Shown here one piece after another: positions 42,884 to 60,573 of a DNA stretch of 64,000 nucleotides. The notes under the pieces are model-generated. The model made no database searches, had not been told where the DNA came from, and saw nothing but the letters and a program-made list of their open reading frames with translations. This DNA is from Terriglobia bacterium (GTDB lineage: Bacteria > Acidobacteriota > Terriglobia > 20CM-2-55-15). A program made the translations under genes and the position numbers. The DNA is taken from the NCBI GenBank assembly GCA_963664115.2, contig CAXWPJ010000009.1:224001-288000 (forward strand), written 5' to 3'. Each line of letters begins with the position of its first letter. The stretch's first letter is position 1.

Positions 42884-44346
42884 GTTATCCGGTCCTGACA
42901 GTTACGACGTTTCTGCCCCTCGCGGGGGGTGTTCTGATCCTGCTCCTGGGCAGCGAGCGACTCGCTCGCTGGGTCGCCCTCATCACCACTCTGGCCACCG
43001 TAGCCGTTTCGGTCCCGCTTTACAGGGGATTCGACAAGACATCGAGCACACTGCAATTCGTGGAGTCGCGGGACTGGATCCCGAATTGGAACATCGCTTA
43101 CGGCATGGGCGTGGACGGAATCAGCCTTCCATTCATCTTCCTTGCCTCGCTGCTCGGCGTCCTGTGCATCGGCGCCTCATGGTCCGCGATCCAAACTCGA
43201 ACGCGAGAGTTCTATGCGGCGCTCCTGGTGGCGGAAACCGCGATGATCGGCCTTTTCGCGGCCTCGAACCTTTTTCTCTTCTATATTTTCTGGGAACTCA
43301 TCCTGGTTCCGGTCTTTCTCCTGATCGGCGTCTGGGGAGGTCCGGGGCGTGTCTACGCGTCGATCAAGTTTTTGCTCTTCACTCTCGCCGGGAGCGTTTT
43401 CATGCTTGTGGGCATGATCGCTCTCTACCAGGCATTGGGCACATTGGACTTCAGGGCCCTGGCCCTGGCCCGGGACAGCCTCGATTCGAGCCAGCAAGCC
43501 TGGCTCTTCGCGGCCTTTCTGGCCGCTTTCGCAGTCAAGGTGCCCATGTTTCCGGTACATACCTGGCTCCCGGACGCTCACACGGAAGCTCCAACGGCGG
43601 GGAGCGTGATCCTGGCCGGAATTCTTCTCAAAATGGGCGCATACGGGTTCCTGCGTGTCTCGATTCCGGTTCTTCCCGACGCCGTGCAACTCTTCTTGAC
43701 GCCGATGCTGGTCGTCTCCGTGGTGGCTATTGTCTATGGCGCATATGTGACCCTTGTCCAGACGGACGTAAAACGTCTCATCGCGTTCTCGAGCATCAGC
43801 CACATGGGTTTCGTCACGCTGGGTATTTTCACACTCGACCAGGGCGGGGTCGAAGGAGCGGTCCTGCAGATGATCAACCACGGGATCATTTCGGCGGCAC
43901 TATTCTTGTGCGTCGGCATGATCTACGAGCGCACTCACACGCGGGAAATCAACGATTACGGGGGAGTTGCCAAAGCCGCACCGGTCTATTCGACCTTGCT
44001 CGGCCTGTTTTGTCTGGCAGGAACGGGATTCCCAGGTCTGAATTCATTCGTAGGGGAGTTTCTGATCATCGGTGGCGCTTTCAGAACTCACGCCTTGCTG
44101 GGGGCGATGGCGGTCTGGGGTGTAGTCCTTGGAACGGCGTACCTCGTCTGGCTCTACTACCGCGTTGTTATGGGCCAGATCAACCCCGGGCTCGAGGGGC
44201 TCAAGCTAGAGCTCAATATTCGTGAGGTGGCGACGCTTGCCCCTCTGGTCTTATTCGCGGTGTGTCTCGGCCTCTACCCTGATCTCGTCCTCTCTTATTT
44301 GCGAGCTCCCGTGGCCGCGCTACTTGCCGGGGGGGTCACCCCGTGA
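42880..44346 (+). CDS. nuoM: NADH-quinone oxidoreductase subunit M
   Basis: GVDGISL, FWE, AVKVPMFPVHTWLPDAHTEAPT, LLKMGAYG. Confidence 0.95.
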   Translation: MSYPVLTVTTFLPLAGGVLILLLGSERLARWVALITTLATVAVSVPLYRGFDKTSSTLQFVESRDWIPNWNIAYGMGVDGISLPFIFLASLLGVLCIGASWSAIQTRTREFYAALLVAETAMIGLFAASNLFLFYIFWELILVPVFLLIGVWGGPGRVYASIKFLLFTLAGSVFMLVGMIALYQALGTLDFRALALARDSLDSSQQAWLFAAFLAAFAVKVPMFPVHTWLPDAHTEAPTAGSVILAGILLKMGAYGFLRVSIPVLPDAVQLFLTPMLVVSVVAIVYGAYVTLVQTDVKRLIAFSSISHMGFVTLGIFTLDQGGVEGAVLQMINHGIISAALFLCVGMIYERTHTREINDYGGVAKAAPVYSTLLGLFCLAGTGFPGLNSFVGEFLIIGGAFRTHALLGAMAVWGVVLGTAYLVWLYYRVVMGQINPGLEGLKLELNIREVATLAPLVLFAVCLGLYPDLVLSYLRAPVAALLAGGVTP

Positions 44347-45764
44347 ACGGCGCCACTCTTTCTGACGTCGCCCTGCTGGTCCCGGAACTGATTCTGGTCG
44401 GGATGTCCGTCGCATTGATCGTTCTCGCACGACGTATAAAGAACACGCCGATTGCGGCAACAGGGACAGTCCTTGCTGCATTGGGCGCTGGCATGTACTC
44501 CTTCTGGGCGGTGTCAGAAGGCACTCAAGTCGGCTTTGGCGGCATGCTCATTCTGGACGGCTACTCCCAATTCTTCAAGGTGCTCATTGCCGCCACTCTG
44601 GCTCTGGTCGCGCTTCTGTCGGTGAGAAGCCACGATCTGGAAGAGGTGCCCCGCGGCGAGTACCATGCCCTGCTCCTGTTGGCTTCGACGGGGATGATGC
44701 TTGCAGTTTCATCACTGGATCTGCTGACCCTCTACTTGGGCCTAGAGCTTATGACGCTGTGCTCCTACATCCTGGTCGGGATCGCGGTGGACAGACCGAC
44801 GTCAAACGAGGCCGCGATCAAGTATTTCCTTTTGGGGTCATTCGCCTCAGCCCTGCTTCTCTACGGGATCGCCCTGACCTACGGCCTCACCGGCGCTACC
44901 AACTATCAGGCCGTTGCCTCGGTAATTACGGGTCAGGGGCTCACGGAGAACCCGCTTCTGCTAGTGGCCATCGGACTGGTAGCGGCCGGGCTCGCATTCA
45001 AGATTGCGGTGGTGCCGTTTCACGCCTGGGCGCCGGACGCTTACCAGGGTGCAGGTGCACCTGTCGCGGGCTTCCTGGCGGCCGGTTCCAAGGCCGTCGG
45101 CCTGGCCGCTCTGGGAAGGGTTTCCCTGACCGCGTTCGGCGAGGAAACCTACGTCTTGTCCCTGGTTCTTGCGGGACTCGCAGCCCTTTCGATTGTCGTC
45201 GGCAGCATCGTGGCCCTGGCCCAGACCGACATGAAACGTTTGCTGGCCTATTCTGCAATCGCGCACGCGGGTTACGCACTGATGGGCCTCATGGCCGGTA
45301 CGAGGGAGGGGATTTCTGCAACCATGACCTACGCCTTCTTCTACGTCTTTATGACGCTCGGAACATTCGGCGTGGTCATCGCTCTGGGCGAGCGTGGTCG
45401 AACTCTGGATGGATACAAGGGCCTGGCTCGGCAGCGACCCGGAACAGCCGCCCTCATGTTACTTTTTCTCTTGTCTCTGACCGGCATCCCTCCAACGGGG
45501 GGCTTCGTCGCCAAGTTTGTCGTTATCCTGAGCGCTGTGCGCGCAGGCTACGTGGGACTGGCTGTACTTGCGGTGGCCTGCAGCGTAATTTCAGCATTCG
45601 TGTACATGCGGGTAGCCGTCTTCATGTACATGAGAGAGCCCGAGGAGCCGGCGCCTTCGAGCTTCCCGGTGGCGGTGTCCGCCGCTCTCGCCGTGGCAGC
45701 GCTGGTCACTTTAATTGGTGGGATCTCCCCGGGCATTTTGACGGTCTGGGCGGTGTCTCCGTGA
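44343..45764 (+). CDS. nuoN: NADH-quinone oxidoreductase subunit N
   Basis: EAAIKYFLLG, FKIAVVPFHAWAPDAYQGA, GIPPTGGFVAK. Confidence 0.95.
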   Translation: MNGATLSDVALLVPELILVGMSVALIVLARRIKNTPIAATGTVLAALGAGMYSFWAVSEGTQVGFGGMLILDGYSQFFKVLIAATLALVALLSVRSHDLEEVPRGEYHALLLLASTGMMLAVSSLDLLTLYLGLELMTLCSYILVGIAVDRPTSNEAAIKYFLLGSFASALLLYGIALTYGLTGATNYQAVASVITGQGLTENPLLLVAIGLVAAGLAFKIAVVPFHAWAPDAYQGAGAPVAGFLAAGSKAVGLAALGRVSLTAFGEETYVLSLVLAGLAALSIVVGSIVALAQTDMKRLLAYSAIAHAGYALMGLMAGTREGISATMTYAFFYVFMTLGTFGVVIALGERGRTLDGYKGLARQRPGTAALMLLFLLSLTGIPPTGGFVAKFVVILSAVRAGYVGLAVLAVACSVISAFVYMRVAVFMYMREPEEPAPSSFPVAVSAALAVAALVTLIGGISPGILTVWAVSP

Positions 45765-45792
45765 TGTCCACGATAATGTACACTAATGACTT

Positions 45793-46146
45793 ATGAACGC
45801 ATACATCGGGATAGCGGTCAGTTTCGTTCTGGCTGCAGGGATCACGGGCTTGATGGTCATCCTGGCCTCCACGCTGGGAAAGAAGAATTCCACGCCTGTA
45901 AAGTTGTCGCCGTTCGAATGTGGGGTGGATCCGTTTTCGCTCCCTATCGGCAAGTTGGCAATCAAGTTTTACCTGACTGCTATTCTGTTCATCCCCTTCG
46001 ATGTCGAGCTGGTGTTCCTCTATCCCTGGGCCGTGCTTTACCGCCAGCTGGGGACCTTGGGACTGGTTGAAATGGGACTCTTTCTGGGCATCCTGATGGC
46101 AGGTTATGTCTACGCCTGGGACAATGGCGCTCTTGACTGGCAATGA
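45793..46146 (+). CDS. nuoA: NADH-quinone oxidoreductase subunit A
   Basis: PFECGVDP, FDVELVFLYPWA, GALDW. Confidence 0.95.
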   Translation: MNAYIGIAVSFVLAAGITGLMVILASTLGKKNSTPVKLSPFECGVDPFSLPIGKLAIKFYLTAILFIPFDVELVFLYPWAVLYRQLGTLGLVEMGLFLGILMAGYVYAWDNGALDWQ

Positions 46147-46185
46147 CTGGAAATGACTGGCAATGACTGGAAATGACTGGCAATG
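46134..46185 (+). repeat. Tandem 10-bp repeat TGACTGG(C/A)AA, five copies
   Basis: tgactggcaa tgactggaaa tgactggcaa tgactggaaa tgactggcaa, beginning in the last codons of nuoA. Confidence 0.95.
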
Positions 46186-46219
46186 CAGGACAATGATCCC
46201 GCAATTCTGTAAATAAATC

Positions 46220-46723
46220 ATGTTCAACGACACATCGTTTCTAACGAGCCGGCTCGACGACGCGGTTGGCTGGGCACGAAAGTATTCAATCTTCCAGTAT
46301 CCGTTCGTGACTGCGTGCTGCGGGATGGAGTACATGGCGACGGCCTGCTCTCATTACGACGTGGACCGTTTCGGAGCGGGCTTCCCAAGATTTTCTCCTC
46401 GCCAGGCCGACGTACTTTTCGTCGTCGGCACGATCAGTCACAAGATGGCGCCTGTCCTCCTACGCATCCATGAGCAGATGGCGGATCCCAAGTGGGTGGT
46501 CGCTTTCGGCGTGTGCGTGTGCACGGGCGGTTTTTATGACAACTACGCCACAGTGATGGGCATCGATACCATCATGCCGGTGGATGTTTATATACCTGGA
46601 TGCCCACCGCGGCCGGAGATGGTCCTCGACGGCCTGATGAAGCTGCAGGACAAGATCCAGGACCATGGAGTAAGCGGCAAGCGCGTCGCGCCTGAACCTC
46701 GTCCGGACCTCTTCGAAGCATGA
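46220..46723 (+). CDS. nuoB: NADH-quinone oxidoreductase subunit B
   Basis: TACCGME, SPRQAD, PGCPPRPE. Confidence 0.96.
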   Translation: MFNDTSFLTSRLDDAVGWARKYSIFQYPFVTACCGMEYMATACSHYDVDRFGAGFPRFSPRQADVLFVVGTISHKMAPVLLRIHEQMADPKWVVAFGVCVCTGGFYDNYATVMGIDTIMPVDVYIPGCPPRPEMVLDGLMKLQDKIQDHGVSGKRVAPEPRPDLFEA

Positions 46724-47301
46724 ATACCACATCTTTGATCGAATCCCTCACGGACCGCTTTCCCGCTGCGGTGACCTCGTCCCATGCCTACCGGGGTGAC
46801 GCAACACTTATTGTTCGTCCGAAGAGCCTCGTCGACGTGGCGCGGTTTCTCAAGGAGGACCCGGCCTTAAAAATGAATTACCTCATGGACCTGACTGCCG
46901 TCGACTACTCCGCATTCGGGAAACACCCCACGCCGGCCTTTTTCACTTCTTCGGGAGTGACGGTGAAGCCGTCTTCCGAGATTCCGGATGAAGAACCGTG
47001 GCCCGGCCCTCCGGACGAAGGGCGGTTTGCGGTCGTGTACCACTTCTTCTCGACCACCCACAAACATCGGCTACGACTGGTTGTCCCGGTAGAGGAGAGT
47101 GTGGCTCAGGTGGATTCGCTGACCGCGTTGTGGCCGGGCGCCGACTGGCTTGAACGCGAGGTCTGGGACATGTTCGGGATCGGTTTTACGGGACATCCCG
47201 ACTTGAAGCGGATTCTCATGTACGAAGGGTTCGAGGGTCACCCGCTACGGAAGGACTATCCCGTCAAAAAGCGTCAGCCGCTGATCGGACCGACCAACTA
47301 A
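46720..47301 (+). CDS. nuoC: NADH-quinone oxidoreductase subunit C
   Basis: DLTAVDY, WLEREVWDMFGI, GHPLRKDYP. Confidence 0.95.
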   Translation: MNTTSLIESLTDRFPAAVTSSHAYRGDATLIVRPKSLVDVARFLKEDPALKMNYLMDLTAVDYSAFGKHPTPAFFTSSGVTVKPSSEIPDEEPWPGPPDEGRFAVVYHFFSTTHKHRLRLVVPVEESVAQVDSLTALWPGADWLEREVWDMFGIGFTGHPDLKRILMYEGFEGHPLRKDYPVKKRQPLIGPTN

Positions 47302-47310
47302 CAGCGTTCT

Positions 47311-48693
47311 ATGGAAAAGAACAGCCCATCGCCGGAGACGGCGCCGACACCCCGGGGCGACCCGGCAGAACTCGAAACGCGGGACATGCTCATCAACGTG
47401 GGTCCCGCTCATCCCGCCATGCACGGGATCATCCGGATCGTAGCTAAGCTCGACGGGGAACAGATCGAGGATGCCGAAGTAGAGATCGGCTACCTTCACC
47501 GTGGTTTTGAAAAGATGGCTGAAACGGTCGACTATAACGGCGTCATGCCTTACACCGACCGGCTCAACTATGTCTCGCCGCTCATCAACAATATGGGCTA
47601 TTGCATGGCTGTGGAAAAGCTCCTTGGGATCTCGGTCCCGGAGCGCTGCCACTACGTTCGGGTCATTCTCTCCGAGATCTCGAGGCTCTCGGATCACCTG
47701 ACCTGCGTCGGTGCAACCGCCATGGAGTTGGGGGCCTTCAGCGTGTTTCTGTACATGATCAAGGCCCGGGAGTACCTGTGGGAGTTGGTGGAGAAGGTCA
47801 CCGGAGCCCGGTTGACAGTCAGCTATTGCCGCGTGGGCGGTGTCAAAGCGGACCTTCCCGATGACTTCGCCGAACCTTGCCGCAAGGCCTTTGAGGAAAC
47901 CCGCAAGGTCCTCGCTGAGGCGGATGGGCTCCTCACCCGCAATCGCATTTTCACCGACCGTATGACAGGGACAGGAGTGCTCTCCGTCGACGACGCCATA
48001 GGCTACGGAATCACCGGCCCCTTCCTTCGTGCGAGCGGCGCGGACTACGACGTGCGCAAAGACTGCCCCTACGCCGTCTACGACCGGATACCATTCGACG
48101 TGCCAGTGGGTAGCAAAGGCGACAACATGGATCGCTATCTGGTACGCATGGAGGAAATGCAACAGTCCATGCGGATCGTGGAAACAGCGCTTGCCGACAT
48201 ACCGCCCGGCCCCGTCATGGTCAATCCTGAGACGGGGCGCCCCATCCCGGCCGCCGATATGGTAGACCTGGCCAAAGTGGGCGACATCAGAGCCATTTCA
48301 GGCAGGCCCGCCGTCGTCGATCCGACACTCGAGGGGGCCAGTCGGGCCGAATATCCGTCTATTGCTGCGGATGAGAAACGCGTTTTTCTACCTGCTAAAG
48401 AGGATACTTACGGCAACATCGAAGGGCTCATGAACCACTTCAAGCTGGTCATGTTGGGCCACGGCCTGCGCCCCCCAAAAGGGGAAGTCTATTTCCCGGT
48501 GGAAGGCGCCAACGGAGAACTCGGGTTCTACGTAGTGAGCGACGGAGAGGGACGTCCCTACCGGGTCCGGGTCCGCCCGCCCTGCTTCGCTATCATGTCG
48601 GCCCTGCCCCATCTCCTTGTCGGGGGCATGATGGCCGATATGGTCCCCACCTTTGGGTCCGTGAACATGATAGGCGGGGAACTCGACCGGTGA
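47311..48693 (+). CDS. nuoD: NADH-quinone oxidoreductase subunit D
   Basis: GPAHPAMHG, GYLHRGFEK, DRLNY, GELDR; no NiFe CxxC motifs. Confidence 0.96.
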   Translation: MEKNSPSPETAPTPRGDPAELETRDMLINVGPAHPAMHGIIRIVAKLDGEQIEDAEVEIGYLHRGFEKMAETVDYNGVMPYTDRLNYVSPLINNMGYCMAVEKLLGISVPERCHYVRVILSEISRLSDHLTCVGATAMELGAFSVFLYMIKAREYLWELVEKVTGARLTVSYCRVGGVKADLPDDFAEPCRKAFEETRKVLAEADGLLTRNRIFTDRMTGTGVLSVDDAIGYGITGPFLRASGADYDVRKDCPYAVYDRIPFDVPVGSKGDNMDRYLVRMEEMQQSMRIVETALADIPPGPVMVNPETGRPIPAADMVDLAKVGDIRAISGRPAVVDPTLEGASRAEYPSIAADEKRVFLPAKEDTYGNIEGLMNHFKLVMLGHGLRPPKGEVYFPVEGANGELGFYVVSDGEGRPYRVRVRPPCFAIMSALPHLLVGGMMADMVPTFGSVNMIGGELDR

Positions 48694-50486
48694 CGCTCAA
48701 GGAAATGGAAGACGCGGCGGAGGAAATCCTCCGACGCTATGAGTACCCGAAGGCGGCGATGCTGCCTGTCCTGTGGCTCGTACAGCAGAACCAGGGCTAC
48801 ATCTCACCTGAGGCAGAAGCTTGGGTGGGCCACCTTCTTGGAGTGTCTATCGCCCACGTGCGCGAGGTAGTCTCCTTTTACAATATGTTCCATACCCAGC
48901 CCGTCGGACGGCGGGAACTTCGGGTCTGCACGAGTCTGCCATGCCGCCTCCGCGGAGGGCACGATGTGTTGGAACGCATCAAGGACGGATTAAAGATCAG
49001 CCCGGGTGAGACCACGCCCGGCCAGGAGGTGACGCTCACCGAGGTCGAATGCTTGTGTGCTTGCGAGATGGCGCCCATGGCCCAGCTCGACGAACGCTTT
49101 GTCGGCCCTCTTGACGGTGGGGCCGTAGCCACCCTCATCGAGGACGCTTTGAGCGAACCCGGGAGCGGGGAGTCGACCCCGGAGCCCGACCCCTACATTT
49201 GCACGGATGGGCCGGTTCTCTCCACGCGCTTCAACGATCCGGAGGGGACCTGGTTCGAAACTTACGTCGCCGATGACGGATACGCCGCCTCCCGGCGAGT
49301 GCTCACCTCGATGACGCCGAGGGAGGTGATCGACGAGGTCGCCAAGGCCAAGCTCCGCGGTCTCGGCGGGGCGGGTTTTCCGGCCAGCCGAAAGTGGTCC
49401 TTCATACCCAAGGATTCGACCGAGCCCAAGTACCTCGTAGTCAACGCAGACGAGGGCGAACCCGGGACTTTCAAGGACCGTTACATTCTGGAAAGGGACC
49501 CGCACGCCCTGATCGAGGGCATGATCATCGCAGCCTATGCGATCGGCAGTCATAAGGCCTACGTCTACATTCGGGGCGAGTATTTCAGGTCCGCCAAACG
49601 TTTACAACGCGCCCTGGACGAGGCCTATAACACGAATTGGCTGGGCAAGAACATTCAGGGGACAGGCTTTGACCTGGACGTGGTCATCCACCGGGGCGCC
49701 GGCGCCTACATTTGTGGAGAAGAGACTGCGCTCCTGACGTCGCTCGAGGGCGGCAAAGGCTTTCCCAAGATCAAACCCCCTTTTCCGGCTATTTCGGGCC
49801 TCTTCAAATGCCCCACGATCGTCAACAATGTGGAAACCCTGGCCTGTGTCCCTTTTATCCTGCGCAACGGAGCCGAGCGCTTTGCCGAAATAGGTTCCGA
49901 GACCCAGGGTGGAACACGCCTCTTCTGTGTGAGCGGGCACGTGGTCCGGCCCGGCGTTTACGAGACGTCGGTCAGCATCACCCTGCGGGAACTGATCGAG
50001 CAGCATGCCGGGGGCGTACGCGATGGCAAGAAGCTTAAGGCTGTCATTCCCGGGGGGATCTCAGCCAAGATTCTCAGGGCTGACGAGATCGATGTGGGCA
50101 TGGATTTCGACTCGCTCAGGGGGGCCGGAACCATGGCTGGATCCGGGGGCGTAATCGTCATGGATGAAACCACCTCCATGGTCGAGGCGCTCGAGTCCGC
50201 GGCCCGGTTCTTCGCTGACGAGTCCTGCGGACAGTGTTCCCCCTGCCGGGAGGGGACAGGCTGGGTGCATCGCATCGTCGACCGCATCACCGAAGGGCAG
50301 GGACGTGTCGAGGATCTGGACGACCTTCTCGCTATTGCCGGCGATATGGAAGGCAACACTATCTGCGTTTTCGCGGACGCGGCGGCCTGGCCAGTCCAGT
50401 CCTACATCATGAAATTCAGGGACGAGTTCGAGGATTACATCCGTACCGGCCAGCGGGTCGGGGGAAAGGAAGCTGCGCATGCCTAA
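48690..50486 (+). CDS. nuoEF: Fused NuoE-NuoF (NADH-binding flavoprotein with N1a and N3 clusters)
   Basis: NuoE CTSLPC...ECLCAC, then NuoF GGAGFP, NADEGEPGTFKDR, GAGAYICGEETAL, ESCGQCSPCREG in one ORF. Confidence 0.93.
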   Translation: MTLKEMEDAAEEILRRYEYPKAAMLPVLWLVQQNQGYISPEAEAWVGHLLGVSIAHVREVVSFYNMFHTQPVGRRELRVCTSLPCRLRGGHDVLERIKDGLKISPGETTPGQEVTLTEVECLCACEMAPMAQLDERFVGPLDGGAVATLIEDALSEPGSGESTPEPDPYICTDGPVLSTRFNDPEGTWFETYVADDGYAASRRVLTSMTPREVIDEVAKAKLRGLGGAGFPASRKWSFIPKDSTEPKYLVVNADEGEPGTFKDRYILERDPHALIEGMIIAAYAIGSHKAYVYIRGEYFRSAKRLQRALDEAYNTNWLGKNIQGTGFDLDVVIHRGAGAYICGEETALLTSLEGGKGFPKIKPPFPAISGLFKCPTIVNNVETLACVPFILRNGAERFAEIGSETQGGTRLFCVSGHVVRPGVYETSVSITLRELIEQHAGGVRDGKKLKAVIPGGISAKILRADEIDVGMDFDSLRGAGTMAGSGGVIVMDETTSMVEALESAARFFADESCGQCSPCREGTGWVHRIVDRITEGQGRVEDLDDLLAIAGDMEGNTICVFADAAAWPVQSYIMKFRDEFEDYIRTGQRVGGKEAAHA

Positions 50487-52131
50487 GCTAAGCATTGACG
50501 GCCGCGAGGTGAGCGTCGATCAGGGAACCACGGTCATCCAGGCGGCGGAGACGCTGGGGATTTTCGTTCCGCGCTACTGCTACCACCCCGGGCTCTCTAT
50601 CGCGGGCAACTGCCGCATCTGCCTCGTGGAAGTGGAGAAATCCCCCAAGCTCCAGATCGCATGCAACACTCCTGCGACCGAGGGGATGGTTGTTCACACA
50701 AAGAGCGACACCGCCCAGGACGGACGTCGCTCGGTACTGGAGTTCCTCCTGGCCAATCACCCGCTCGACTGCCCGGTTTGCGACCAGTCCGGTGAGTGCG
50801 ACTTACAGAATTTCTACCTGGACTTCGGCCTCTACAATCCGCGCTTCAGGGAGCGTAAAGTCAAGAAAAAGAAAGCTGTGACGCTGGGCCCGTATGTGAT
50901 GCTGGACCAGGAGCGCTGCATCCTCTGTTCCCGGTGCGTGCGCTTCACGGACGAGATCACCGAGACCGGAGAGTTCGGCATCTTCAATCGCGGAGACCGC
51001 TCCGAGCTGGGGCTGTACCCTGGCAAGGAACTCGACAATCGGTATTCGACCAACGTGGTGGACATCTGCCCCGTCGGTGCGCTGACCGAGCGGAAGTTCC
51101 GTTTCAAGACGCGGGTCTGGTACCTCTCCAGCGCCCCGACCGTCTGCAACGGTTGCAGTCAGGGCTGCAACATGGATTTGCATTACGTTCTGGACCGCCC
51201 TCACCTGAACGACGGCGCGCGGCTGCTGCGTGTCAAGCCACGATACAACCCGGATGTAAACCAATGGTGGTTGTGCGATGAAGGGCGCTATGGCCTCGAT
51301 TGGATCGACCAGGCTCGGCTCCGGAAGGTACGCGGGCCGTCGGGGGACGGGGCCGAGGGCGCAGATGCTCAGAATGCCACAAATACAACGGATACGACAT
51401 GGGACACGGCCCTTCGAACAATCTCAGCAGCTCTCTCGGTCCTGCCCAAGGGACGGATCGGGGTAATTGCCTCAGCCCGACTCACGATCGAAGAGCTGTT
51501 TCTGATCCGGGAGATTTTCCAGCGCGGCCTCGGCGCCCAGGTCAGTGCCTCTGTTCCAGAAATGCCAGGCTCTTCCGACGATTTCCTCATTAAGGCGGAT
51601 AAGAACCCCAACACCATGGGGGCGGAGCTGCTGGGACTATCCGGTCCGAACGCGCCGGACGCAGGACAGATCCTGGACGAGGCACTCGCCGGGAACCTTG
51701 ACGCCCTGTGGGTTATGGGGCACGACCTTGTCGCACTCTTCGGTGAAGAGAAGGCCCGACAACTCCGAGACAAGGTGGGTCTCTTCGTCTTCTCCGGAAC
51801 GAACGAAAACCGAACGGTTCCCTTGGCCCATTGGGCCTTGCCGAGCGCGGCCTATGTGGAAAAAGACGGGACCTTCGTCAACTGCCACGGACGCGTCCAG
51901 CGAATCGGCCAGGCGTTTCCTCCGCTTGAGGACTCCCGTGAGGACTGGCGCATTCTCCTGGAATTGGCCCGGCTGCTAATGCTCGAACTCGACTGGCACG
52001 AACCCCAGGACATCTTCGCGGCAGTGGCCTCCACCGAGGCGCCTTTCGCGGGAATGAGCTACGAGACGATAGGAGATCAGGGGGCTGGGGTCCGGCCAAC
52101 CGAGCCCGCTGAAGAGGTATCCGTCACGTGA
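50479..52131 (+). CDS. nuoG: NADH-quinone oxidoreductase subunit G (short form)
   Basis: PRYCYH, GNCRICLVE, NHPLDCPVCDQSGECDLQ, CILCSRC, CPVGAL, CNGCSQGC (N7). Confidence 0.93.
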   Translation: MPKLSIDGREVSVDQGTTVIQAAETLGIFVPRYCYHPGLSIAGNCRICLVEVEKSPKLQIACNTPATEGMVVHTKSDTAQDGRRSVLEFLLANHPLDCPVCDQSGECDLQNFYLDFGLYNPRFRERKVKKKKAVTLGPYVMLDQERCILCSRCVRFTDEITETGEFGIFNRGDRSELGLYPGKELDNRYSTNVVDICPVGALTERKFRFKTRVWYLSSAPTVCNGCSQGCNMDLHYVLDRPHLNDGARLLRVKPRYNPDVNQWWLCDEGRYGLDWIDQARLRKVRGPSGDGAEGADAQNATNTTDTTWDTALRTISAALSVLPKGRIGVIASARLTIEELFLIREIFQRGLGAQVSASVPEMPGSSDDFLIKADKNPNTMGAELLGLSGPNAPDAGQILDEALAGNLDALWVMGHDLVALFGEEKARQLRDKVGLFVFSGTNENRTVPLAHWALPSAAYVEKDGTFVNCHGRVQRIGQAFPPLEDSREDWRILLELARLLMLELDWHEPQDIFAAVASTEAPFAGMSYETIGDQGAGVRPTEPAEEVSVT

Positions 52132-53219
52132 TAGAAGTTCTGATCATCAAAATTACACTGGCGGGAATCGTTTTCTTCACGGTCTTGAACTTCGCAGGGT
52201 TTCATACCTGGGCGGAGCGGAAACAGTCGGCTCTGATCCAGGATAGAATCGGGGCCAACCGTGCGGATATTCTCGGCTTTAGGATGCTGGGACTCTTTCA
52301 CGGCATCGCCGACGCGATCAAGTTGTTCACCAAGGAGGACATCGTCCCGACGGGAGCAGACAGGACACTCCATACGCTGGCCCCATTCTTTTCGGTGTTC
52401 TTCGCCCTCGTCGCGTTCGCAGTGATTCCCTTCGGGGACACATTGATTCTCGGGGACAGGGTCATTGAACTCCAGGTCGCAACGTTTGACGCCGCGCTCC
52501 TCTACGTTTTCGCCATGCTCTCCCTCGGAGTCTACGGCGTGATCCTCGCGGGCTTTGCCTCGCCCAACAACTACGCAATCATGGGAAGCCTCAGGGCCAC
52601 CGCACAGATGATCTCCTATGAAATCGCACTGGGAGTCTCTGTTGTTGGAGTGATCATGGTTTACGGGACCATGGATCTGTCGGAACTCGTGCGGGCTCAG
52701 GGGCAGATGATCGGCGGCTGGATTCCTTTCTGGGGCATCGTCGCCCAGCCCGTGGCCTTTGTCGTATTTGTGACCGCGGCACTGGCCGAAACCAAGCGGA
52801 TGCCCTTTGATATGCCGGAAGGGGAATCAGAGATCATCGGGTACTTTGTGGAGTACAGCGGCATGAAGTTCGGGATGTTCTTCCTCACGGACTTCCTAGA
52901 GACCATCATGGTGGCATGCTTGTCGACCACACTCTTTTTCGGCGGGTGGCAGGTACCCTTCCTGTTGCCGGACGGGTTCCACTTCCCCTGGGGAGCGGAG
53001 ATACTCATGCCCAATTGGCTCTACGCCCTGCTGGGTGTGGTGAGCTTTTCGACCAAGGTCGTGGTTTTCTGTTGGATCTTCATGCAGCTTCGCTGGACCC
53101 TGCCACGATTCCGTTATGATCAGCTCATGAAACTGGGCTGGCGAGGGCTGTTCCCGATCGCGGTGGCCAATATTGTGGTCACGGCCGGCGTGCTGATGTT
53201 TTTCGGAGAGGGGTTCTAA
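52128..53219 (+). CDS. nuoH: NADH-quinone oxidoreductase subunit H
   Basis: ERKQSALIQDRIG, AETKRMPFDMPEGESE, LPRFRYDQLM. Confidence 0.96.
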   Translation: MIEVLIIKITLAGIVFFTVLNFAGFHTWAERKQSALIQDRIGANRADILGFRMLGLFHGIADAIKLFTKEDIVPTGADRTLHTLAPFFSVFFALVAFAVIPFGDTLILGDRVIELQVATFDAALLYVFAMLSLGVYGVILAGFASPNNYAIMGSLRATAQMISYEIALGVSVVGVIMVYGTMDLSELVRAQGQMIGGWIPFWGIVAQPVAFVVFVTAALAETKRMPFDMPEGESEIIGYFVEYSGMKFGMFFLTDFLETIMVACLSTTLFFGGWQVPFLLPDGFHFPWGAEILMPNWLYALLGVVSFSTKVVVFCWIFMQLRWTLPRFRYDQLMKLGWRGLFPIAVANIVVTAGVLMFFGEGF

Positions 53220-53878
53220 TGGCCGTAAGAGTTGTCTCAAGGCCCGAGTTGACTTTCTGGGAGAAGCTCTACATCCCGCAGATCGTCTCCGGCTTCAGGA
53301 TCACGTCCAGACACTTCTTCCGAAACCTCTTTCTCCATACGGCCCACAAACTGGGCCTGTTCAAACACCTTGCTGCCTCCGCCACCATACAGTATCCCGA
53401 AGAACTCCGGCCGCTGATGTCACGCTACCGAAGCCGCCACCGGCTGACCGTGCGCGACGACAACACACCACGCTGCGTCGGATGTATGCTGTGTGAAACG
53501 GTCTGCCCGGCCCACTGCATTACGATCGTGGCCGGGGAACACCCCGACCCCAATGTCGAGAAATATCCGATCCGCTTCGACATCGATCTGGGGGTGTGCG
53601 TCTATTGTGGTTACTGCGTCGAGGTATGCCCTGAGGATGCGATCCGGATGGACACGGGAATTCTTGATCTGGCGGCTTACTCGAGGGAGGCCATGCAGTT
53701 GGACATCCACGAACTCATGGACCCAAAGCTGCACAAACCCATCCCCCAGTGCGACCTCGATTTCCCGCACAAGTGCGAGGTGAGCGGGGGCGAGATGAAG
53801 GGAAGCTGGGAGGGATTGGTGGAACATCGGCCAGCGGACTCACCACAGGTCCCGGCAGAGTCGGCAAAGCAGGGATAA
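53219..53878 (+). CDS. nuoI: NADH-quinone oxidoreductase subunit I (complete copy)
   Basis: QYPEE, CVGCMLCETVCP, CVYCGYCVEVCPEDAI. Confidence 0.95.
   Translation: MAVRVVSRPELTFWEKLYIPQIVSGFRITSRHFFRNLFLHTAHKLGLFKHLAASATIQYPEELRPLMSRYRSRHRLTVRDDNTPRCVGCMLCETVCPAHCITIVAGEHPDPNVEKYPIRFDIDLGVCVYCGYCVEVCPEDAIRMDTGILDLAAYSREAMQLDIHELMDPKLHKPIPQCDLDFPHKCEVSGGEMKGSWEGLVEHRPADSPQVPAESAKQG
53306..53811 (+). repeat. Left copy of a ~506-bp direct repeat (nuoI internal/3' part)
   Basis: Near-identical to 60037..60542; about six substitutions seen by eye. Confidence 0.95.
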
Positions 53879-54116
53879 AGGCCACCCCAGTATTCGTTTG
53901 ACACCCCGGACTTTTCGGCCGTTCGATCCCGGACCTCGCTCGGCCAACGCTGGCGGCTTCAGTTTACGCCGCGCGCTCGTATTCCCCCGTTATGGTTCCG
54001 GAAATTCCCAGACATCTACCTCATCTTCATGGCGACGGACTTCTTATTTCGCTTATCCGCCTATCTCTCCTACCTCGCAGAGATTGCTTATTTCGCCTAT
54101 ACTCACAATTTCGCGT

Positions 54117-56594
54117 ATGAAATCACTACATTTTAAATTGCACATCTTTTCTCTCTGCGCTCTGGCAATAGCTCAACCCTTGCTCGAAGTGATTTCCAGG
54201 AATGCCGAACTGTTGGTAGCTCGCCAAGCCGGCGTAGTTGACTTGGCAATTCTTGTCTTTGCGCTTTCGATTCTCGTTCCGTTGCTATTGGTGTTGCCCG
54301 GTCAAATAGCTCGAGTTTACGGAACATTACTCAGTGATAGATTTTTCCTTGGCACAATCGTTTTTCTTGTCAGTTTGCTGGCCCTTTTAAGCTTGAAAGA
54401 AATTACTGATGGTTCAAGTGCATATTTGGTTTTGATGGCCTTGTTGCTCGGGGTTCTCTTCGCGTCTATGTATACCCGATTCGAAGCCCTGCCTATGATT
54501 TGTGATTTCCTTGCTCCGGCAATTCTATTAGTACCGATACTGTTTGTGTTCAATTCAAACATCTCTAGAGTTGTCGCAAATTCTGATGGGACACAGTTTT
54601 CTTTTTCGGGTGCTCGAAACAATATACCTGTTGTCATGGTTGTCTTTGATGAACTGCCATTGTTGTCTCTGCTTGATGAAACTGCCAATATTGACAGCGT
54701 CAGATACCCAAATTTCGCTACCCTGGCGTCTGAAAGCCACTGGTTTCGCAATGCGAGATCCTTGAGCGGATCGACCACAATTGCAATTCCTGCGATTGTA
54801 AGTGGTGAGACCAAGCCGGACGCACTGCCTATCGCCGTAGACTATCCGAGGAATTTATTCACGCTGCTAAATGCAAGTCACCAACTTAATGTAACGGAAC
54901 AGGTCACCTCGCTGTGTCCTCAGTCTGTTTGTGACAGTACCGCTATCGGGACTCCACAGGCTTTGCAACAAAGGCTAGAAGGGTTTTTTACCGATCTGGC
55001 CGTGGTCTATCTTCATGTTCTATTACCTGAGGATTTGACGGCTAGTCTTCCGACCATATCCCAATCATGGGGAAACTTCGTCAACAGGGGCGTCAGCGAA
55101 ACAGGCCCGTCGACTGAGACCGACAATTCTGAATCTCGAGATGAAAAATACGCGAGTTTTCTGAATGGGATAGTGGCGTCTGAGAAACCGAGCCTAAATT
55201 TTCACCACACTCTCTTACCGCATGTTGCCTGGGAATATCTGCCTTCGGGCAAATTCTATTCTATTTATGGGAGTGATGTGCCTGGACTGAATTTTGTCAA
55301 TGAAATATGGGGAGACGATCCCGCTCTTGTTGAACAGGGCTATCAACGACATTTGCTGCAAGTTGGCTTTGTGGACAAATTGTTAGGAGATCTGATAGCG
55401 AAATTAAAGTCTGAGAATCTCTACGATGAGTCTCTGATCGTAATTGTTTCAGACCATGGCGTTAATTTCTGGCCAGGAGAATCCCGTCGCGATCTATTTG
55501 ATCCGAGATTTACCCTGGACACATTGGGCATCACTTTGCTGATCAAACAGCCCCGGCAATCGGTCGGGATTGTGCATGACGGCGAGGTGTCGTCGCTAGA
55601 TATCCTGCCGACTATAGCGAATAGTTTGGGAATTCAGACTGATGATCAATTTCAAGGGCGCGATCTTTTCGGTTCAGATGCTCAGTCTACAACCAGCGCT
55701 GATAATCCCTATTTGAATTACGCGAGTTTGCAGCGCAAATTGAAGCTTTTCGGTTCAGGAGAGCTTTCTACTCTTTACGGTCTGGGCGATTTTTCTCAGT
55801 TGTTGAACTTGAGAAAAAGTGATTTCGATTTGGAAGTATCAAACAGCTTAACTTATACAATCGATCAACAAAGCAATTTGTCTGATGTCAGCTTGAGCGA
55901 TTTGATGATACCCGCGCGCGTAACTGGCGAACTTATGGGTGCTTTGATTGACGAAACCGATATGGATCTCGCCGTAATGTTGAATCGCAAACTAATCGCC
56001 GTAAGCAAACCTTACTTCAGTGGCTCTGAGTTCAGATTTTCAATAATGCTGCCTGAAAATGAGATTGAAAACGGGTTTAACGAATTTGAGTTATTTAGAA
56101 TTCATGCTGAGGCCAATGAAACTTTCCGGCTGGAGCAAGTTCGAAACCTGAGAGGGGATTTCTATCGATATACCACCGAAGGTAACTTGGAGAGTCTTTC
56201 TTCTGTCGACAATGAAAGTAGCGAAATTGCGTTGATACCAGGACGGGTCAGAGGTTTCGTAGACAGCATTAGCTTAAAGCAAGGATTTCTGGAAATAATC
56301 GGTTGGGCTGCAAATATTCAAAACGATGAACCCGCAGAATTTTTGATTATCGATATTAACGGCCAGTTGGTCTATTTGGGCACGCCAGTACTTCAACGCA
56401 GCGATGTCGCTACGGCATTCGATGCGCCTTCAATTGAAGAGTCCGGCTATCTGCTCGATGTTCGGGCGACGAGGTTTGCTGACTTAGAACCATTGAGCGT
56501 GAAGGTAATCGGAGTCAGTGGAAATGAAGCAAGTTTATTAGAGTCAAATTTCGATATTAGCGAAAGAATCGAAGAGCTGGCTAGGAGCCAATGA
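54117..56594 (+). CDS. Membrane-anchored alkaline-phosphatase-superfamily (sulfatase-like) hydrolase/transferase, NoeB-like
   Basis: About 5 N-terminal TM; VVFDELP, GSTTIAIPAIVSG (Thr/Ser rather than CxPxR), LLPH, IVSDHG; C-terminal GFVD..GWA..RSDVA..SGY module; likely start MKSLHF at 54117. Confidence 0.8.
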   Translation: MKSLHFKLHIFSLCALAIAQPLLEVISRNAELLVARQAGVVDLAILVFALSILVPLLLVLPGQIARVYGTLLSDRFFLGTIVFLVSLLALLSLKEITDGSSAYLVLMALLLGVLFASMYTRFEALPMICDFLAPAILLVPILFVFNSNISRVVANSDGTQFSFSGARNNIPVVMVVFDELPLLSLLDETANIDSVRYPNFATLASESHWFRNARSLSGSTTIAIPAIVSGETKPDALPIAVDYPRNLFTLLNASHQLNVTEQVTSLCPQSVCDSTAIGTPQALQQRLEGFFTDLAVVYLHVLLPEDLTASLPTISQSWGNFVNRGVSETGPSTETDNSESRDEKYASFLNGIVASEKPSLNFHHTLLPHVAWEYLPSGKFYSIYGSDVPGLNFVNEIWGDDPALVEQGYQRHLLQVGFVDKLLGDLIAKLKSENLYDESLIVIVSDHGVNFWPGESRRDLFDPRFTLDTLGITLLIKQPRQSVGIVHDGEVSSLDILPTIANSLGIQTDDQFQGRDLFGSDAQSTTSADNPYLNYASLQRKLKLFGSGELSTLYGLGDFSQLLNLRKSDFDLEVSNSLTYTIDQQSNLSDVSLSDLMIPARVTGELMGALIDETDMDLAVMLNRKLIAVSKPYFSGSEFRFSIMLPENEIENGFNEFELFRIHAEANETFRLEQVRNLRGDFYRYTTEGNLESLSSVDNESSEIALIPGRVRGFVDSISLKQGFLEIIGWAANIQNDEPAEFLIIDINGQLVYLGTPVLQRSDVATAFDAPSIEESGYLLDVRATRFADLEPLSVKVIGVSGNEASLLESNFDISERIEELARSQ

Positions 56595-56933
56595 GTTCGG
56601 CTCAACGAAGGTTTTAAAAATAGCTACTTAGAAAGTTTTGCATTCGAATGCTGGACGCAGGAATAGACGCCTCCGTCGAATGTGAATGTGGTCGCCCCTC
56701 CCCGGTGATCACAAGTAGGGACTTCCCGACAGCGCAGTCCCAATCTTCATGACCGCGAACATCGAAGAGTTTTAACTTATGGATTCCCTAAGAATGGACT
56801 ATGCTTTATTCCAGATCGGGCGGATTTGGAAGGAGTGTATCGTGAAGCGCTTTGGGTCGGGCATAGAAGTGGCCCCCAAAATTAGGACAGCGTTATAAGG
56901 TGGACTCTGCATAGATGAGAGGACCTAACGACG

Positions 56934-57215
56934 ATGGCGAAACGACGGAATTTTTCAGCAGATTTCAAAGCGAAGGTAGCGCTGGCCGCGATGCGTGGCG
57001 ACGGCACGATGGCCGAATTGGCGGCGCGGTACAAGATCCATCCGAACATGATCACGAAGTGGAAGCGTGATGCGCTTGATAGCGTTAAAGAAGCATTCCA
57101 GCGAGGCCGGGATCCATCGGCCCGGAACCACGAGGACGAGATCAAAGACCTGCAGGCCAAGATCGGTGAACTGGTCGTGGAACGGGATTTTTTAGCACGA
57201 GCCTTCAATCGATGA
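56934..57215 (+). CDS. IS3 transposase OrfA (HTH)
   Basis: RRNFSADFKAKVALAA HTH_Tnp_1 pattern; GGATTTTTTAG near the 3' end. Confidence 0.92.
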   Translation: MAKRRNFSADFKAKVALAAMRGDGTMAELAARYKIHPNMITKWKRDALDSVKEAFQRGRDPSARNHEDEIKDLQAKIGELVVERDFLARAFNR

Positions 57216-58060
57216 GCTTGGGTCGAAGGCGCGAGGTGGTCGAACCGGGCCATGAGCAGCTCAGTGTGGTCCGGCAATGCGACTTGATCGGGTTGAGCCG
57301 TTCGAGTTGGTACTATCGGCCACGGGGTGAGAGTGATCGCAATCTGGACCTGATGCGCGTGATCGACGAGGCGTATCTGAAGATGCCCTGGTATGGGTCC
57401 AGGCAGATGACGCGTCATCTGAAACGTCTCGGCTACGATGTGGGCCGGAAGCGGGTACGCCGACTAATGCGGTTGATGGGGCTGCGCTCGGTGGCACCGC
57501 AGACGTCCCGGAGAAACCCGGCTCATCCGGTGTACCCATATCTACTCAACGACATTGCCGTGGAGCGGGCGAATCAAGCGTGGTCTACCGACGTGACGTA
57601 TATCCCGATGGCGCACGGATTCTTATATCTGGTCGCGATCATGGACTGGCATACGCGGAAGGTGTTGTCCTGGCGGCTGTCCAACACCCAGGACACGACG
57701 TTTTGCCTTGAAGCCCTCGACGAGGCGATCGAGGAATACGGCAGTCCGGAAATCTTCAACACCGATCAGGGCAGCCAGTTCACCAGCAAGGCCTGGACGG
57801 ACCGACTTAAAGAACGAGGTATCCGGATCTCCATGGACGGCAAGGGGCAATGGATCGACAACGTTTTCATCGAACGCCTATGGCGCTCGATCAAATACGA
57901 ATGCGTTTATCTAAACGCCTTCAGTGACTTCAAAGATGCCCGGCACCACATAGGTGTCTGGATGAACTATTACAATAACGACCGCCCGCATTCCAAACTC
58001 GACGATCTCACGCCGAGCGAAGCCTACGCGGGAACACGGCCACTGACCTCGGCAGCATAA
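57212..58060 (+). CDS. IS3 transposase OrfB (DDE integrase core)
   Basis: WSTDVTY, NTDQGSQF, DNVFIERLWRSIKYE. Confidence 0.94.
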   Translation: MSLGRRREVVEPGHEQLSVVRQCDLIGLSRSSWYYRPRGESDRNLDLMRVIDEAYLKMPWYGSRQMTRHLKRLGYDVGRKRVRRLMRLMGLRSVAPQTSRRNPAHPVYPYLLNDIAVERANQAWSTDVTYIPMAHGFLYLVAIMDWHTRKVLSWRLSNTQDTTFCLEALDEAIEEYGSPEIFNTDQGSQFTSKAWTDRLKERGIRISMDGKGQWIDNVFIERLWRSIKYECVYLNAFSDFKDARHHIGVWMNYYNNDRPHSKLDDLTPSEAYAGTRPLTSAA

Positions 58061-58326
58061 ACATGAACCGCGGAATCCACCTTAAATTGGCTGCCAAGCT
58101 GTCCAACGTATGGGGTCCACCTCTCATCGCAACCCTGACAGGCATCGCCTTTCAATTGTAAGTTGGGAGCAGCCCGCACACGCCTATCTTGATCCGGGAG
58201 CCGGCAGTCTCCTTCTCCAGGTGCTGATGGGAGGCTTGGCCGGGGCGGCCGTTGTGGTCAAGGTGTATTGGAACAGCCTGATGGCGAGATTTGGACGCGG
58301 TGGAGACACCCGGAGAGCCGATCCGG

Positions 58327-59750
58327 GTGAGTCAGACACCTAGATTGGAACCCACACGAATAGAAGGCTCCTTCCGAGATCCCGCTGGACAGATCTTCCA
58401 AAAAGACGGCCACATTTACCGGACCATTAACGCCGTTGCCGTGGATGACTTTGTCTTCGTTCAGAACACCAATTTCTACCCGAAAGCCGTCAGCGAAAAG
58501 CGTCTCATCTCTGCTGAACAAGTTCCGCCCGAAATCCTGAACAGCCGCCAGCCAGAGGCCTCCCATGTGATCGAGCACCCACGCCTGCCTTTCGTGTCCT
58601 ATCCCTATGAGTGGACGTTCCAAATGCTCAAAACTGCCGCACTGTTCCACCTCGATTTCCATCTTGATGCCCTGAGAGACGGCATAACGCTTATCGATGC
58701 CTCTGCATACAACGTGCAATTCATAGGTGCCTCGCCAATCTTTATCGACACGCTGTCCTTACGGAAATATAAACCGGGCTCCCTCTGGGCTGGTTACAAA
58801 CAGTTCTGCGACCAGTTTCTCAATCCCCTCCTCCTGAGGTCCTACGTTGGACTGCACCACAACGCCTGGTATCGGGGAAACCAGGAAGGCATCAACGCCG
58901 GGGAGATCCGGAAATTATTGCCCGCCCGGCGTAAGCTGTCTCGAAGGGTGCTCACACACGTCACGCTCCAGGATTCGCTTCAGAAAACCACGCGTAAAGG
59001 TTCCGGCCCGAATCTGGGAGCCTTGCAGGAGGTGGAACTCCCACTGGCAACATTCAGAAAGACGCTCACTGACCTGAAGGATTGGATTAAGGGACTCGAA
59101 CCGAAAGAGGCGGGACGCACCGTATGGAGCGACTACGCAAACTTCAACAGTTATGCGCCACAAGAAGAAGCCCTCAAGCACGAATTCGTAAACGACTTCG
59201 TCCGACGCAGGAAACTCGTACAGGTCTGGGACCTTGGCTGCAATAGTGGCGAATATGCAGCAGTCGCTCTCAATGCCGGGGCAGACTATGTCGTCGGGTT
59301 CGATGCGGATCACGGCGCGTTGGATTTGGCATTCCGCCGTTCCCAAGAGGAACGGTTACGCTTTCTTCCTCTCTTTCTCGACATCGCGAATCCTCCGCCC
59401 TCTCAGGGGTGGGCGCAACAGGAACGGTACGGACTCAGGGAACGCACCAGCGCGGACGGCGTGATCGCCCTGGCGCTGATCCATCACATATCGATCGGAG
59501 GCACAACGTACCTCTTGGCGATGCGCTTGCCTGGTTGGTCGGCCTGGGACCCAGAGGCGTAATCGAATTCGTGCCCAAAGAGGATCCCATGGTCCAGGAG
59601 TTACTTCGGTTCCGGGAGGATATCTTTCCGAATTACACACTCGAAAACTTTCTTAGAAAGCTTCAAACACTTGCATCCGTCGAACGGACGGAACCGAGTT
59701 CATCGACCGGTCGTTTGCTGGTGGAGTATTCGCGCAAGCCACAAGCGTAA
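58327..59750 (+). pseudogene. NoeA-like protein (kinase-like N-terminal domain + class I SAM methyltransferase), frameshifted near 59500
   Basis: GSFRDPAG, FVSYPYEW, DASAYNVQF, IFID; VWDLGCNSGEY; after HHISIG the expected continuation NVPL…IEFVPKEDPMV is in another frame (59409..59750); start 58291 or 58327. Confidence 0.8.
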
Positions 59751-60036
59751 ACGGCAAACGAGATGGAACCGCGCTGTAAATCGTCCATCGCTACGCCGAC
59801 GGCTTCTCAAAAGACCTGGAGCCTGCAAAACATAACCCACAAATCATCGTTTATCACTGGCAGCCTGCACGTGTACGTCGTCAGAGTAATTCGGACAGAA
59901 GGGCTGTCTCTCCAAGAGACGGCTTTTAAGTTATACCACTTCAGTCCTCAAGTTTGCGATCCGACGCTCGGCCAGCGTTCGCTGCTTGATTCTCTCCCGA
60001 CGGGAGAGGATTTCCTCCTGATGGCCAAAGAACACT

Positions 60037-60573
60037 TCCAGACACTTCTTCCGAAACCTCTTTCTCCATACGGCCCACAAGCTGGGCCTGTTCAAATACC
60101 TTGCTGCCTCCGCCACCATCCAGTATCCCGAAGAACTCCGGCCGCTGATGTCACGCTACCGAAGCCGCCACCGGCTGACCGTGCGCGACGACAACACACC
60201 ACGCTGCGTCGGATGTATGCTGTGTGAAACGGTCTGCCCGGCCCACTGCATTACGATCGTGGCCGGGGAACACCCCGACCCCAATGTCGAGAAATATCCG
60301 ATCCGCTTCGACATCGATCTGGGGATGTGCGTCTATTGTGGTTACTGCGTCGAGGTATGCCCTGAGGATGCGATCCGGATGGACACGGGAATTCTCGATC
60401 TGGCGGCTTACTCGAGGGAGGCCATGCAGTTGGACATCCACGAACTCATGGACCCGAAGCTGCACAAACCCATCCCCCAGTGCGACCTCGATTTCCCGCA
60501 CAAGTGCGAGGTGAGCGGGGGCGAGATGAAGGGAAGCTGGGAAGAGGTCGACAAATCACAGACAGCGAACTGA
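60037..60573 (+). pseudogene. nuoI: 5'-truncated second copy of nuoI (right direct repeat 60037..60542) with a different C-terminus
   Basis: Both 4Fe-4S motifs intact; lacks the first ~29 codons; in-frame stop at 60019 upstream; ends EVDKSQTAN*. Confidence 0.9.

Follow-up and report, generated by a model that had tools for sequence, protein, structure and literature searches.

The DNA analysed here, a window of 64,000 nucleotides on contig CAXWPJ010000009.1 of a Terriglobia bacterium (coordinates without a prefix are positions in this window), almost certainly carries a decaying copy of a cassette encoding a microprotein, NoeA and NoeB, with a membrane gene of the NoeB family intact and the other two genes broken; this degree of confidence is a joint one, for the identity of the cassette and for its decay. 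Judged by sequence, the cassette is of the family of rhizobial NoeA/NoeB and of Lani_1193-1195 of Legionella, which is widespread and already in print. A first-pass annotation had called the module an undescribed surface-modification system, a description that does not hold, as a kinase-methyltransferase with an EptA/YejM-like neighbour and a small neighbour is published for Lani_1193-1195 and NoeA/NoeB. Two observations are new here: NoeB-family genes track NoeA from genome to genome, although many are unlinked to it and several copies may be present, and the sole invariant hydroxyl of the microprotein belongs to a Tyr directly after a signal-peptidase-like site. The favoured route, put forward tentatively, is that this Tyr may be a single-use carrier of methyl-phosphate; some phosphodiester decoration through the Thr of NoeB is probable.

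Decay of the cassette in the window

The gene order between two flanking copies of nuoI is membrane gene, microprotein gene, noeA, a 14-codon noeB stub and the end of an insertion sequence (IS); every feature given here lies on the plus strand, except the IS end, which has no assigned strand. The membrane gene (54117..56594) encodes an intact AlkP-superfamily protein of 825 aa. The microprotein gene, which has a GTG start preceded by a Shine-Dalgarno-like AAGGAG, is interrupted after 23 nt (5' piece, 56842..56864) by an IS3-family element of 1260 bp (56865..58124, with a CAT target duplication) that has 9 near-identical copies in the genome. Its 3' piece (58125..58343) has a 1-nt deletion near 58154, relative to a second copy in the genome, which brings a native-frame stop at 58159-58161, and it encodes A-H-A followed by Y-L-D-P-G-A-G-S, whose Tyr codon is at 58185, together with a single membrane helix and a basic tail. 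Because of the IS3 split and the frameshift, this microprotein has no signal peptide; of the small protein described at first pass, the AHA-YLDPGAGS motif and single transmembrane helix stand, and the signal-like N-terminus has been lost here. A contig from the RNA run X18 crosses the left-hand junction of the IS and extends 40 letters beyond it on the outside; no separate confirmation of the 1-nt deletion was found among the contigs listed.

The noeA gene (58327..59750), encoding a kinase-like domain and a class I S-adenosylmethionine (SAM) methyltransferase, is frameshifted by 2 extra nt at 59502-59503, so that the first frame stops at 59560-59562. An assembly error was considered as the source and ruled out, since contigs from runs X4 (59286-59623) and X16 (59331-59556), from two studies, are gapless and carry the window form; contigs without the 2 nt bear the substitutions of the second copy. 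Comparison with that copy gives 91% identity over 386 aa and a ratio of non-synonymous to synonymous substitution rates (dN/dS) of 0.145 over 385 codons, indicating that the window noeA was under selection until recently. All that remains of the cassette's own noeB is a stub of the first 14 codons (59832..59872), with a start that reads ATA, matching the N-terminus of an intact 852-aa relative (P0415); it is cut by the end of a diverged multicopy insertion sequence (59871..60039), presumably IS481-like.

The second cassette in the genome (C12:458635-462931) has about 90% DNA identity to the window copy over the microprotein gene and noeA, and its noeB has lost the in-frame ATG. A third NoeB-family gene (C12:154625-156166; E 3e-48, 589-aa frame) is present also in G002, a genome of the same genus. 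Given the loss of the C12 noeB start, the parts that remain clean are the microprotein gene and noeA of C12, the membrane gene of the window and, possibly, the gene at C12:154625-156166; the window membrane gene could work only in trans, with the C12 microprotein and noeA. Thus, all three genes of the module first annotated are present, and with two of the three broken there is no working module at the window, which makes this locus a poor test object.

Co-occurrence of the three gene families

The best 80 of 579 noeA loci found were surveyed. A microprotein gene lies just 5' of noeA at 72 of the 77 loci with room for it (55 of these are in the profile). Of the 60 loci flanked by 2.5 kb on either side, 46 have an adjacent NoeB-family gene, which is downstream at 35, upstream in the same orientation at 9 (one of these loci shows both arrangements) and divergent at 3; at 1 further locus it is farther off, and 13 have none. 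It is directly downstream of noeA at 44 of 71 loci. When 10 of the 13 loci without NoeB were searched genome-wide, a full-length member was found elsewhere in 10/10 (E<=6e-44). Among 41 related genomes, noeA was found at E<1e-40 in 12, of which 11 have the microprotein; NoeB was found at the same threshold in 10 of these 12 and in 0 of the 29 others, the remaining two having a split or weaker match. As the kin are not independent, this co-distribution is a description and not a test. Several NoeB-family copies occur per genome, three at E<1e-40 here and up to three in others. The co-occurrence of the Y[LI]DPGxGS peptide, noeA and the transferase gene, proposed as a check at first pass, extends beyond the window, and the three families are indeed associated.

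The presence of cys genes next to the C12 cassette raised the idea of sulfate chemistry, which was rejected: the only other case is in G002, of the same genus, and a sulfotransferase is found at 1 of 37 loci scanned.

The microprotein family

In an alignment of 68 copies of the microprotein, the only invariant positions are Y1, D3 and Q12. Its library matches comprise 11,320 clusters at 50% identity; among the best 150 of these, which were picked by the same profile that scored them, Y1 is present in 150/150, an A-x-A-type site before the Tyr in 144/150 and a net-positive tail in 145/150. The A-x-A site and the basic tail together predict a cleaved signal and a helix with its N-terminus outside and its C-terminus inside. 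A few members have just 6-10 residues before the Tyr; some of these look as if the start had been called too late, and others may have no signal. No Pfam or NCBIfam model and no family name was found for the microprotein. Fusions to larger proteins were sought among 8 matches of 127-142 aa and rejected on weak evidence, the five inspected being upstream-extended calls.

The NoeB-family membrane protein

The window membrane protein has 5 N-terminal helices, an AlkP-superfamily core (D178, E179, T220, H364, H369, D446, H447) and C-terminal beta-rich modules with GWA/RxDV, for which no family name was found. In a profile of 64 noeA-neighbour genes, from which Sinorhizobium meliloti NoeB and the window protein were both left out, each of these two matches at E<=4e-69 (the window protein at E 4e-69), and in direct hhalign comparison they match each other weakly (52%, E 1.4e-4). 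Conservation in the 64 genes is 64/64 for D178, 64/64 for H369 and 63/64 for D446; position 220 is Thr in 60, Ser in 4 and Cys in 0. The sulfatase C/S-x-P-x-R motif is absent, as first annotated, the window protein reading T220-T-I-A-I. Its membrane domain of five helices, its metal ligands and its Thr nucleophile are features of LtaS/EptA-type transferases, and it looks like a Thr-nucleophile transferase and not a type I (formylglycine) sulfatase; unlike the membrane phosphotransferases LtaS, EptA, MCR and YejM, it falls below the cut-off of every curated model (for LtaS, 23 of 970 bits).

The membrane gene is not the cassette's own noeB; we infer that it is a separately acquired relative, because its product is 35% identical to C12 NoeB, a FastTree phylogeny of 74 sequences places it in another clade than the C12 gene with its relatives, the closest named relatives of its product are from SAR86 and metagenome-assembled genomes of Pseudomonadales (36-44%), and its GC content at third codon positions is 45% (45% overall), compared with 57-75% in the other non-IS genes measured. 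A 213-nt contig from RNA run X18 maps to the gene, a single one, which does not establish transcription. In contigs of runs X4 and X9 (two studies), a T-run of the gene has an extra T at 54983, linked to C>T at 55708; the resulting frameshift in these populations is either more decay, slippage switching or a homopolymer error. Runs X14 and X16, labelled sponge metagenome, contain fragments that match the membrane gene and noeA at 99-100% identity.

NoeA

There are at least 7,874 NoeA homologues among 7,999 scored. In the N-terminal half, R26, D118, N123 and D135 are invariant in 117 sequences, corresponding to the beta3 basic residue, the DxxxxN motif and the Mg-binding D of kinases, and the order of strands and helices in the model is, in our reading, compatible with a bilobal protein-kinase-like scaffold. 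The C-terminal half has a Rossmann-like fold with the D-x-G-x-x-x-G motif of class I SAM methyltransferases, and the intact C12 noeA product shares 43.6% identity, across 98% of its length, with the annotated NoeA of S. meliloti, which bears out the first-pass reading of a NoeA-like protein with a SAM domain. The fold matches include the phosphate-methylating enzymes MePCE, BCDIN3D, DhpI and WbdD; these were not counted as evidence because they are tied with unrelated methyltransferases.

Origin of the block and other copies

The block lies at the end of a nuo gene run (42880-53878) of unusual order (M, N, A, B, C, D, fused E-F, short G, H, I, read from translations by eye; the profile scan covered nuoI only). 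The run ends in a full nuoI (53219..53878). A 513-bp direct repeat bounds the block, and its left copy (53299-53811) lies inside this nuoI. The right repeat copy is a 5'-truncated nuoI (60030..60573) with a cytochrome c gene behind it. The two nuoI copies are 98.6% identical, with 7 differences in 507 nt compared. In G002, nuoI runs directly into the cytochrome c gene, an empty site that the tail of the right copy and the cytochrome c gene of the window match; nuoI of G004 has the left-copy tail, and at 5 of the 7 differing sites both relatives share the letter of the right copy. This is the pattern expected if a circle bearing the block had recombined into nuoI by one crossover, and the block could leave again by the same route. 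Across the genus, the site 3' of nuoI varies (G001-G004, L040-L043), with a pile-up of transposase genes in G004. Further nuoI-like genes are present elsewhere in the genome, and 45 bp 5' of the membrane gene (54060-54104) are 96% identical to C12:504784-504828 and present also in G002.

Other copies of the cassette in kin are disrupted as well. An IS3 element lies within noeA at G001:C41:3509500-3512300, a cassette with two insertions is found at G002:C2:3397000-3403000, G004:C20 has two cassette copies with frameshifts and a stop, and in the first copy at G013:C7:1036900-1041000 a transposase pair is directly 3' of noeA and noeB is absent. Near-identical noeB alleles encode 852, 836, 827, 784, 781 and 579+273 aa. 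Repeated breakage in the genus could mean that the cassette confers a costly or phage-exposed surface trait; neutral decay in IS-rich genomes explains it equally well. At L023:1782-4187 (G001), an acyltransferase-like gene, which from its motif we take to be OafA-type, adjoins the cassette, a position held by Lani_1192 in Legionella and by nodL in Sinorhizobium. At C12:553502-555170, beside two insertion sequences, lies a frame of 555 aa in which adhesin-like repeats come after collagen-like G-x-x repeats.

Relation to known systems

The nod-box n5 operon of S. meliloti has the order nodL, a gene for a hypothetical protein of 71 aa, noeA and noeB. The product of the 71-aa gene is a match to the microprotein (23/46 identical, 50% over 46 aa), and NoeB matches the same profile as the window protein and has the same D/T/H/DH residues. 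Unlike that operon, the window has no nodL and two broken genes, its NoeB is of a longer type (825 compared with 553 aa) with extra C-terminal modules, and its NoeB-family gene is upstream of noeA, an order found at 10 of the 80 loci. Mutants in noeA and noeB are said to have shown no change of Nod factor in work by Ardourel in 1995. Effective nodulation of Medicago requires both genes, and modification of Nod factor by them is a hypothesis only [PMC9048898].

The published description of Legionella anisa Lani_1193/1194/1195 is of a kinase-methyltransferase fusion with Arg replacing Lys and with D/N/D conserved, whose kinase domain has protein-kinase domains as top structural matches, flanked by neighbours conserved in 65% and 38% of 816 loci; Lani_1195 is EptA/YejM-like and many Lani_1193 homologues have predicted signal peptides (Krysinska 2022, PMC9758233). 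Decoration of secreted factors or of the envelope is proposed there, and in the sections consulted the small protein is given no role [PMC9758233]. The likeness of the window cassette to that of Legionella is drawn from this published description. Literature searches on noeA with noeB, Lani_1194, YLDPG and methyl-phosphate transfer, with most subscription journals outside their coverage, found no biochemical study and no proposal of a carrier.

WbdD of Escherichia coli O9a has the reverse domain order; in NoeA the kinase-like half comes first, without a coiled coil, and the wzm/wzt context of WbdD is not consistent at noeA loci (1 of 37). There is a likeness in layout to DltX, a membrane microprotein described as carrying a group on an invariant Tyr [PMC12148441]. 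Like DltX, the YLDPG microprotein is a single-helix protein with an invariant Tyr, predicted to be extracytoplasmic, placed between inside and outside enzymes. The DltX motif is C-terminal and is reloaded through the MBOAT protein DltB, whereas the Tyr of the YLDPG microprotein is N-terminal; as no MBOAT gene recurs near the cassette, loading would have to precede export.

Proposed mechanism and alternatives

In the proposed mechanism, NoeA would phosphorylate the invariant Tyr of the unexported microprotein precursor and its SAM domain would methylate that phosphate; any loading would come before export, as a kinase in the cytoplasm has no access to a Tyr already exported. Sec export and signal-peptidase cleavage at A-x-A would leave the Tyr N-terminal, outside the membrane and held by one helix. 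Thr220 of the NoeB protein would then attack the aryl methyl phosphodiester, a suitable type of substrate for AlkP enzymes with a Thr nucleophile, and NoeB would hand the methyl-phosphate to a hydroxyl group on a glycan, lipid or protein of the cell surface, the variable C-terminal domains choosing the acceptor. One NoeA and microprotein with several unlinked NoeB proteins fits a shared mobile donor, and it is conceivable, if doubtful, that the YLDPG family is a Sec-exported, single-use carrier providing the activated donor for the whole set of NoeB transferases. Methyl-phosphate, as first proposed, still seems the most reasonable idea.

Several results weigh against this mechanism. Tests of the kinase fold were negative or uninformative: a search of PDB by sequence with NoeA gave 0 matches, kinase profiles matched one of 69 members (RIO1, E 0.22), hhalign kinase scores fell within the shuffled range, fold searches were dominated by methyltransferases, and Pfam, Atlas, Foldseek and VIA searches for a kinase gave nothing usable; moreover, a protein-kinase-like domain is present in WbdD too, whose substrate is a sugar. 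Sulfatases, not transferases, rank first among the folds matched by the membrane protein. Ser/Thr residues at positions 6 and 8 of the microprotein are also highly conserved and could be the modified site. An exported carrier, unlike DltX, cannot be reloaded, so that one protein would be spent per transfer. A glycan-synthesis gene is among the four nearest neighbours at just 11 of 37 loci scanned, so that the acceptor is not indicated, and the chemistry and binding proposed are predicted ones.

It is possible instead that NoeA makes methyl-phosphate on a lipid or small molecule, which NoeB uses as EptA and LtaS use phospholipids, with the microprotein as a scaffold or activator joining NoeA, NoeB and the membrane. 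The five-helix membrane domain and Thr core, as in lipid-donor transferases, are consistent with this, as are the invariant Gln in the microprotein helix, suggestive of helix packing, and the position of the microprotein gene directly 5' of noeB, not noeA, in 2 of 78 matches; but no lipid-handling gene recurs in 37 loci, and a scaffold alone leaves the invariant Tyr at a conserved cleavage site unexplained. Less probably, the modified microprotein may itself be the end product, a surface tag or signal resembling a ribosomally synthesized and post-translationally modified peptide, which NoeB trims, removes or senses as a phosphodiesterase. The near-constant adjacency of microprotein and noeA, with NoeB often elsewhere, would suit such an arrangement, and NoeB finds its best matches, in sequence and in fold, among hydrolases; several NoeB copies per genome with varied C-terminal parts nevertheless fit several acceptors better than one eraser.

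The enzymes may also act serially on one envelope polymer with no shared donor, NoeB adding an ordinary phospholipid head group and NoeA capping a lipid-linked glycan in the cytoplasm like WbdD. This is about as improbable as the preceding alternative: glycan genes are absent at 26 of 37 loci and the strict association of the microprotein and the genome-level coupling of NoeB would be left unexplained. Retention of the metal ligands and nucleophile in 63-64 of 64 diverged members makes it very unlikely that NoeB is non-catalytic or regulatory, like YejM/PbgA, and the cassette a signalling unit.

Significance

The cassette family occurs very widely, and in S. meliloti it has a host-range phenotype. 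The Tyr-carrier model lends itself to a concrete and cheap test on a protein of 50 residues. If true, it would mean that a group is moved across the membrane by protein secretion itself, and it would explain the 30-year-old host-range genes noeA and noeB.

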